Shown piece after piece: positions 8,970 to 9,458 of a stretch of DNA of 11,649 bases. Within the stretch, counting starts at the first letter, position 1; each line of letters opens with the position of its first letter. The notes beneath the pieces were generated by a model. The model was not told the origin of the DNA, searched no databases, and worked only from the letters and a program-made list of their open reading frames with translations. The translations under genes were made by a program, and so were the position numbers. Location of the stretch: IMG/VR virus record IMGVR_UViG_2582581022_000020, positions 1 to 11,649 of that record; one strand, written 5' to 3'. This DNA is from a virus (lineage: Duplodnaviria > Heunggongvirae > Uroviricota > Caudoviricetes).

Positions 8970-9458
8970 ATGAGTCTTTTGAATGAAGTTCAGAAATTCA
9001 TTGAAGCCCATCCGGGGTGTACTTCCGGAGACATTGCGGATGCTTTTGCAGGTTACTCACGGCAGCGCGTTCTGCAGTCAGCAAGCAAGTTACGTCAGAG
9101 TGGGCGTGTGGCTCACCGTTGTGAAGGGGATACACGCAGACATTTCCCGCGCCAGACAAAGATATCGCCGGAGGCGGAACGGCAACCAGTTCGTGAAACC
9201 AGACCTGTGCGCAATTTCTATGTCGGCACTAACGACCCGCGGGAGATTTTATGCCTGACCCGCCAGGCTGAAGAACTGGAGTCCAGGGGCTTATACCGTC
9301 GTGCTGCAACGGTGTGGATGGCGGCATTCCGTGAAAGCCACTCCCAGCCAGAACGAAACAATTTTCTGGCGCGTCGTGAGCAGTGTTTACGGAAAAGCAG
9401 CAAGCGCGCTGTATCGGGTGATGAGTGGTATCTGTCAGGGAATTACGTGGGGGCTTAA
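8970..9458 (+). CDS. PerC-family-like transcriptional regulator with an N-terminal extension (162 aa)
   Basis: Motif AEELESRGLYRRAATVWMAAF...RREQCLRK matches the recalled PerC/Pch signature. ATG at 8970 with a G-rich RBS; the ORF-track start at 8964 is GTG. Confidence 0.5.
   Translation: MSLLNEVQKFIEAHPGCTSGDIADAFAGYSRQRVLQSASKLRQSGRVAHRCEGDTRRHFPRQTKISPEAERQPVRETRPVRNFYVGTNDPREILCLTRQAEELESRGLYRRAATVWMAAFRESHSQPERNNFLARREQCLRKSSKRAVSGDEWYLSGNYVGA

Follow-up and report, generated by a model that had tools for sequence, protein, structure and literature searches.

The early rightward operon of a lambdoid prophage contains a gene for a relative of the PerC regulators, which raises the question of what such a protein does there. 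The DNA in question is a stretch of 11,649 nucleotides (positions 1 to 11,649 of the virus record IMGVR_UViG_2582581022_000020, Caudoviricetes; hereafter the window), and the gene is yfdN (8970..9458, + strand). An earlier note, made from the sequence alone, had proposed that the C-terminal segment of its product resembles the PerC/Pch family, known for activation of the enterocyte effacement locus (LEE) in enteropathogenic and enterohaemorrhagic Escherichia coli (EPEC and EHEC), and that a prophage-borne copy could couple prophage induction to host gene regulation. We found that YfdN combines a PerC-family core with a second, N-terminal domain in a predicted two-domain fold, that yfdN is an early-operon gene which the phage can dispense with, and that it is widely distributed independently of the LEE. 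It is a non-essential accessory gene of lambdoid prophages of the SfV/SfIV/mEp460/CPS-53 type, and by analogy with the Pch and ANR proteins its product may well be an accessory early-lytic regulator which acts on nucleoid proteins or on other regulators.

Domain architecture and family membership of YfdN

The proposed likeness to PerC and Pch was borne out for the quoted segment (LESRGLYRRAATVWMAAF...RREQCLRK, YfdN residues 103-142). The Pfam PerC profile (PF06069), a comparison suggested in the earlier note, matched residues 98-151 with 39.2 bits, well above its gathering score (22.6; E=8.6e-10), and BLASTP aligned 50 residues to a canonical 104-aa Pch of the O157:H7 strain EDL933 at 40% identity (E=1e-8). 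The core motif LE..GL[YW]RRAA..W ... R..CL[RK] is found at YfdN residues 103-141, aligned to the EDL933 Pch, and both motif and three-helix core are common to YfdN, PerC (encoded on the EPEC pEAF plasmid) and PchA, PchB and PchC (encoded on EHEC lambdoid prophages). YfdN is also matched over its full length by PHROG 1324 ("transcriptional activator", E=2e-76). A word-indexed homologue search with the C-terminal domain alone returned YfdN fragments only and no distant PerC proteins.

The match to PF06069 is confined to profile positions 5-58 of 90, with positions 59-90 unmatched, and YfdN therefore has the three-helix core and not a whole PerC protein. PerC and Pch each consist of one domain only, ~90-105 aa long, which spans the full 90-position profile, with the core at the N-terminus followed by a C-terminal extension, whereas YfdN lacks the C-terminal part of Pch and has an N-terminal winged helix and a C-terminal tail of its own. 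The genomic setting differs as well: Pch is prophage-borne like yfdN, but the canonical EDL933 copy lies after the lysis genes as a moron-like gene of the late region, and yfdN lies in the early operon.

The same core resembles the ANR family (Aar, Rnr and Cnr), with which it has the three-helix fold in common. Its best structural matches were phage 'ANR family' proteins among predicted viral structures, with a root mean square deviation (rmsd) of 0.5-0.6 Å over 55 residues, whereas the NCBIfam ANR profile (NF033650) gave 23.1 bits on the core residues, below its cut-off of 32. The published ANR signature consists of A10, E14, A22, W26, A29, W43 and R47 on three helices (PMC4983702), and the first five of these seven are in register with YfdN A100, E104, A112, W116 and A119; W43 is absent from YfdN, and R47, together with C51, pairs with R135 and C139 only after a shift of two residues. 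ANR proteins are small and free-standing (the phage examples matched here have ~60-90 aa) and have been described alongside an activator of the AraC/XylS family, whereas in YfdN the module is part of a fusion of 162 aa, and the annotated neighbours of yfdN within the window included no gene of the AraC family. ANR matches were also noticed on a PerC-like protein of phage-inducible chromosomal islands (PICI) by the authors who described it (PMC11773190). PerC and ANR seem to be sister families built on a single three-helix module.

The N-terminal 80 residues had been taken for an extra domain in the earlier note, and this domain proved to be real. In an AlphaFold2 prediction for which 10 homologues were used, residues 1-60 (8970..9149, + strand) are confidently modelled as a winged helix-turn-helix domain, with three helices (residues 3-13, 19-25 and 31-44) and a beta-hairpin wing (47-60) at a predicted local distance difference test score (pLDDT) of 84-92. 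A Foldseek search of the PDB with this domain returned SmtB/ArsR, MarR, BlaI/MecI, Z-alpha and SSV1 F-93 (rmsd 1.5-3 Å over ~60 residues), with weak E-values of 0.02-0.1, as expected of a small generic fold. The domain is followed by a predicted disordered linker (residues 61-88, 9150..9233, + strand; pLDDT <50 at 63-83), which varies in length and sequence in alignments, and then by the PerC/ANR-type core (residues 89-148, 9234..9413, + strand) with helices at 90-105, 109-122 and 126-148 and a pLDDT of 91-96 over residues 90-148. The protein ends in a tail that reads W-Y-L-S-G-N-Y-V-G in YfdN (9414..9455, + strand), modelled with low pLDDT but conserved in the alignment with the consensus YL[SA]G[NR][YF]VG and absent from Pch and PerC. 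This motif lies 1-5 codons from the stop codon, and further away in one Klebsiella phage; the varying distance and the synonymous codon variation argue for selection on the tail peptide rather than on a ribosome binding site of the downstream gene.

An exhaustive search of representative sequences, clustered at the 50% identity level, gave 104 clusters with E<=0.001. Among these, at least 30 proteins (138-165 aa) have both domains in full length, with identities down to 26%. In an alignment of 28 YfdN-type sequences, P15, A100, L103, R111, A112, R136 and C139 are invariant. A sequence search of the PDB gave no solved relative.

Three chimeric proteins were also encountered (P0101, P0032 and P0062), in which the PerC half of YfdN is joined to a different helix-turn-helix domain, either an initiator-type winged helix (PF13730) or an XRE helix-turn-helix. 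The junction in P0101 lies inside the wing of the winged helix. All three probably arose by deletions that fused two genes as the prophages decayed.

Coupling to the replication initiator, and phages that lack yfdN

The window comprises the immunity and early-right region of a SfV/CPS-53-type lambdoid prophage. A cI-type repressor gene (6072-6725, minus strand) is followed on the plus strand by a pR-like promoter, cro (6821-7018), a cII-like gene (7046-7630), a PHROG 1170 gene (7627-7965), a lambda-O-like replication initiator gene (7975-8967; PHROG 391, E=1e-101), yfdN and a Dam methyltransferase gene (9458..10111; Pfam Dam, E=1e-45), a series which agrees with the placement of the gene in a prophage early-right operon by the earlier note. 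The pR-like promoter (TTGACA-18-TACATT, 6760..6789, + strand, 5' of cro) was the sole σ70-like site in 6600-10500 in a consensus scan, and on the basis of its sequence it is the likely source of yfdN transcription. Terminator-like matches numbered 8 versus 3.7 ± 2.0 in shuffled sequences with minimal stem criteria, so that the scan barely exceeded its controls, and those on the plus strand between cro and yfdN were few and weak and lay inside the cII-like gene. As the rightward genes all abut or overlap and the terminators are weak, we infer that yfdN, gene 6 of this operon, is an early lytic gene, which should not be expressed while a lysogen is stable.

The reading frame of yfdN runs from an ATG at 8970 to a TAA at 9456-9458 and encodes 162 aa. 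A Shine-Dalgarno sequence (AGGGGG, 8959..8964, + strand) lies 5 nt ahead of the ATG within the final codons of the initiator gene, the TGA stop of which was read at 8965-8967. The RefSeq start is instead the GTG at 8964 (164 aa). This GTG overlaps the Shine-Dalgarno sequence, and distant YfdN homologues all open with M-S-[LI] at the position of the ATG in the alignment, which makes the ATG at 8970 the better start and the 8970-9458 given in the earlier note the right coordinates. At the other end, the yfdN stop codon overlaps the ATG of the Dam gene (TAATG).

The initiator is a hybrid protein, with a DnaD/HTH_36-type winged helix at the N-terminus and a C-terminal domain homologous to that of lambda O, with 33% identity to residues 135-270 of the latter (E=1e-26). 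A yfdN-like gene follows directly 3' of the initiator gene in 15/15 loci, with either an ATGA overlap or a gap of 1-2 nt, and yfdN is translationally coupled to the O-like initiator. Among them are Salmonella F1055 (45% identity) and Klebsiella Kp4866-6 (26%), as well as two IMG/VR clades retrieved by querying with family members of 31-33% identity, and the upstream protein matched a PHROG replication-initiator family in all 12 loci in which it was classified, despite identities of only ~20-25% between these proteins. In all 15, IPxGFRG closes the upstream reading frame where the yfdN-like gene starts, despite synonymous codon changes. A profile scan of genome contigs with one family alignment gave six loci only, and nothing was found in viral contigs with the proteins P0149 and P0160 as queries.

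The coupling does not make yfdN indispensable. In phage cdtI (NC_009514), which presumably forms lysogens, yfdN is cut down to an in-frame remnant of 30 codons at 5001-5093 (MSLLNEVQKFIEAHPGCTSGDIADAFYVGD, then stop), and as this remnant keeps the translational coupling to dam it represents a natural near-complete deletion of yfdN. In the O157:H7 Stx2a prophage Stx2a_WGPS2 (NC_049941, region 3466-5267), an IS3-family element splits the gene. Klebsiella phage 1 LV-2017 and Escherichia phage vB_EcoS-716R3 carry a 48-50% identical initiator, the gene of which is followed directly by the methylase gene, and have neither yfdN nor a helicase loader gene: their operons consist of cI, cro, one or two small open reading frames, the O-like initiator, Dam, (RusA) and Q. 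This lineage therefore replicates with the initiator alone, and yfdN has been inserted between O and Dam as an option. The gene is thus dispensable for the phage, and is an optional gene with which the nin-like accessory region begins, at the place of ren in lambda. Phage cdtI itself is an inducible lambdoid prophage, going by the title of a paper cited in PMC5136569.

Adjacency to an initiator invites the reading that YfdN is a replication accessory factor which works with the O-like protein, either as a substitute for P or as a modulator of the origin, for instance by clearing nucleoid proteins from it. The C-terminal domain of lambda O contacts P, and the initiator upstream of yfdN has this domain; the complete mEp460 genome contains no annotated P, DnaC or DnaB-type gene, and together with the P-like position of yfdN this raised the idea of a P substitute. 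The adjacency in all 15 loci also persists although YfdN identity falls to 26-31% and that of the initiator to ~20-25%. Against this, hhalign gave a probability of 0.1% for YfdN versus lambda P, and whereas a P-type loader, being required for replication, would be expected always to accompany its initiator, yfdN is missing next to the initiator in cdtI, LV-2017 and vB_EcoS-716R3, the latter two going straight from O to Dam without any loader; the IS-split copy in Stx2a_WGPS2 also counts against a stand-in for P. The lack of similarity to P, the cdtI deletion and the O-to-Dam phages led us to reject a helicase loader or P substitute as the main explanation, and a role as a replication accessory factor in the wider sense is rather unlikely. 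The GFR[GT] tail of the initiator also persists in the absence of YfdN, which speaks against a replication partnership; the idea that the IPxGFRG tail is a ligand of the TPR-like PerC core was likewise weakened, as relatives without YfdN keep ...SGFRT.

Distribution of yfdN and the LEE

At the DNA level, the yfdN of the window is 100% identical to genes of many E. coli genomes which RefSeq names yfdN and annotates as 'PerC family transcriptional regulator', so the gene had already been named and assigned to the PerC family and its discovery is not new; it has also been called "the K12 unique PerC homologue" (PMC5931665). Of the 5426 complete E. coli genomes, 2668 (49%) carry it, 2547 of these at 80% coverage or more, and 100% identical copies are found in the neonatal meningitis-associated E. 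coli (NMEC) strain CE10, in O25b:H4 and in enterotoxigenic E. coli (ETEC) strains, among other carriers. Phages SfIV, SfV, SfII and mEp460, the Stx2c phages and some Stx2a phages, including those of O157:H7, carry a yfdN which is 92-98% identical, and the YfdN of the Salmonella phage ST64B is 68% identical at the protein level. YfdN of the K-12 cryptic prophage CPS-53 (KpLE1), SfV orf40, SfIV gp42, mEp460 gp44 and ST64B Sb43 are orthologues, that is, the same gene, with 91-100% identity within E. coli and Shigella, the same two-domain architecture and the same position between the initiator and Dam genes. Nothing material distinguishes the yfdN of the window from these orthologues, and it is one allele among thousands. 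A yfdN fragment with 96% protein identity also turned up on a 326-bp contig (JBLKRX010000125.1) from an assembly attributed to Fredinandcohnia humi (Bacillota), which was most likely contaminated with E. coli DNA.

This distribution bears directly on the emphasis which the earlier note placed on the LEE. The ler gene was found in 697 of the 5426 complete genomes, with one copy in each, and subtraction from the 2547 genomes with yfdN at 80% coverage or more leaves at least 1850 carriers without the LEE, which can therefore not be the general target of YfdN. Neither does family membership point to the LEE: the note's statement that members of the family activate it holds for PerC, a LEE1 activator, and for PchA, PchB and PchC, which activate LEE1 strongly (PMC5931665), but does not extend to PchD and PchE, with less than 2-fold or no LEE1 activation (PMC5931665), nor to the PICI PerC-like proteins, one of which represses LEE1 while two have no effect (PMC11773190). 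With effects that span activation to repression, neither the target nor the direction of regulation can be predicted from membership.

It follows that a role for YfdN as a LEE activator like PerC or PchA/B/C, by which prophage induction would turn on ler (LEE1) in attaching-and-effacing hosts, is unlikely. The 40% identity of its core to a PchA-type protein, its membership of Pfam PerC and the presence of the gene on the Stx2c phages and some Stx2a phages of O157:H7 are in its favour, as is the precautionary deletion of yfdN from a K-12 ler::lacZ reporter strain, which indicates that its authors thought cross-activation possible (PMC5931665). Weighing against it, besides the carriers without ler and the relatives that barely activate ler or repress LEE1, are the identical copies in NMEC, uropathogenic E. 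coli, ETEC and K-12 lineages, the absence of the C-terminal half of Pch from YfdN-type proteins and their different flanking domains, and the location of the canonical Pch examined here as a late-region moron by the lysis genes, not in an early operon. Putative LEE activation by YfdN would be possible in the LEE-carrying minority of hosts, and cannot be the general purpose of the gene.

Possible roles of YfdN, and neighbouring genes

The position of yfdN also recalls that of lambda ren, which is the first gene after O and P just as yfdN is the first after the replication genes, and the N-terminal domain of YfdN has a weak likeness to Ren, close to what can still be detected: residues 3-61 were matched by PHROG 142 ('Ren-like exclusion protein') at E=0.009, and the N-domain profile scored 25.6 against lambda Ren in hhalign (probability 23-59%), compared with 9.8 ± 2.2 and a maximum of 20.1 for 100 shuffled Ren sequences. 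The winged helix of the initiator scored nearly as well (21.0), so the likeness is not decisive, and Ren lacks the PerC/ANR module present in YfdN. It is therefore very unlikely that YfdN, in the manner of Ren, serves in anti-exclusion or counter-defence and shields the phage from the exclusion system of a resident prophage, as the equivalent genome position and the scores above the shuffled maximum might suggest, since the similarity is weak and PADLOC gave no defence-system match for YfdN, and with Ren's own mechanism unknown the analogy predicts little.

No experiment on the function of YfdN was found in the literature, although several studies have touched on the gene. Overexpression of K-12 yfdN from an ASKA clone altered the glycogen content (PMC2853380), so the protein can affect host physiology to some extent. 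In strain CFT073 under nitric oxide stress, yfdN was upregulated 12.6-fold along with other prophage genes (PMC5320621), and filamentation was caused by a UTI89 fragment in which a copy of yfdN is accompanied by four of its neighbours, without assignment of the effect to any one gene (PMC6206680).

The reading we prefer, that of an accessory early-lytic regulator, draws on what is known of its relatives. Pch displaces H-NS, StpA and Hha from silenced DNA and reduces H-NS binding, and has no effect in the absence of those proteins (PMC4764244), and ANR proteins are three-helix proteins which bind AraC-family partners and H-NS (PMC4983702, PMC10148876). By analogy, the three-helix module of YfdN would be a TPR-like surface for protein contacts, with the winged helix supplying the targeting to DNA or to a partner, and YfdN would then alter nucleoid or regulator complexes instead of acting as a classical activator. 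It would be made only upon inactivation of the cI-type repressor or upon infection, and so would act in lytic development or early infection, on targets that may be phage genes, host genes or both, with the LEE at most an incidental target in a minority of hosts.

Downstream of yfdN and Dam, the plus strand continues with a gene for a LexA-like protein (10108-10434), rusA (10431-10820) and a gene for a KilA-N protein (from 10840). The LexA-like protein has 108 aa and consists of the LexA-type DNA-binding domain only, without the S24 peptidase domain, and all relatives, among them the Klebsiella phage Kp4866-6, conserve it 3' of yfdN and Dam; judged by this domain content, it could be a non-cleavable LexA mimic which binds SOS boxes. 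The Dam gene (9458-10111) is labelled 'phosphoadenosine phosphosulfate reductase' by PHROG and in some RefSeq phage records. Together with the Pfam Dam match, its PADLOC match to a type II methyltransferase (E=6e-157) identifies it as a DNA adenine methyltransferase, and the reductase label as a propagated misannotation.

As stated in the earlier note, the finding of a prophage-encoded PerC-like regulator repeats an existing annotation, changes little and by itself opens no new question. What is added here is the anatomy of the protein, with its Ren-like winged helix, PerC/ANR core and C-terminal peptide, and the strict coupling to the initiator in phages without a helicase loader. The yfdN gene is among the commonest uncharacterised prophage regulators of E. 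coli, and its PerC label invites a LEE-centred reading which its distribution does not support. A narrower form of the regulatory reading, which we put forward as speculative and hold to be improbable, is that YfdN-type proteins are dedicated counter-silencers linked to the phage origin, in which the winged helix would put the PerC/ANR module on phage DNA beside the initiator, where it would strip off H-NS-type proteins. If true, this would allow efficient firing of the origin and delayed-early or late transcription after induction, would explain why the gene is coupled to the initiator and yet non-essential, and would give a function to a gene present in about half of all E. coli genomes.
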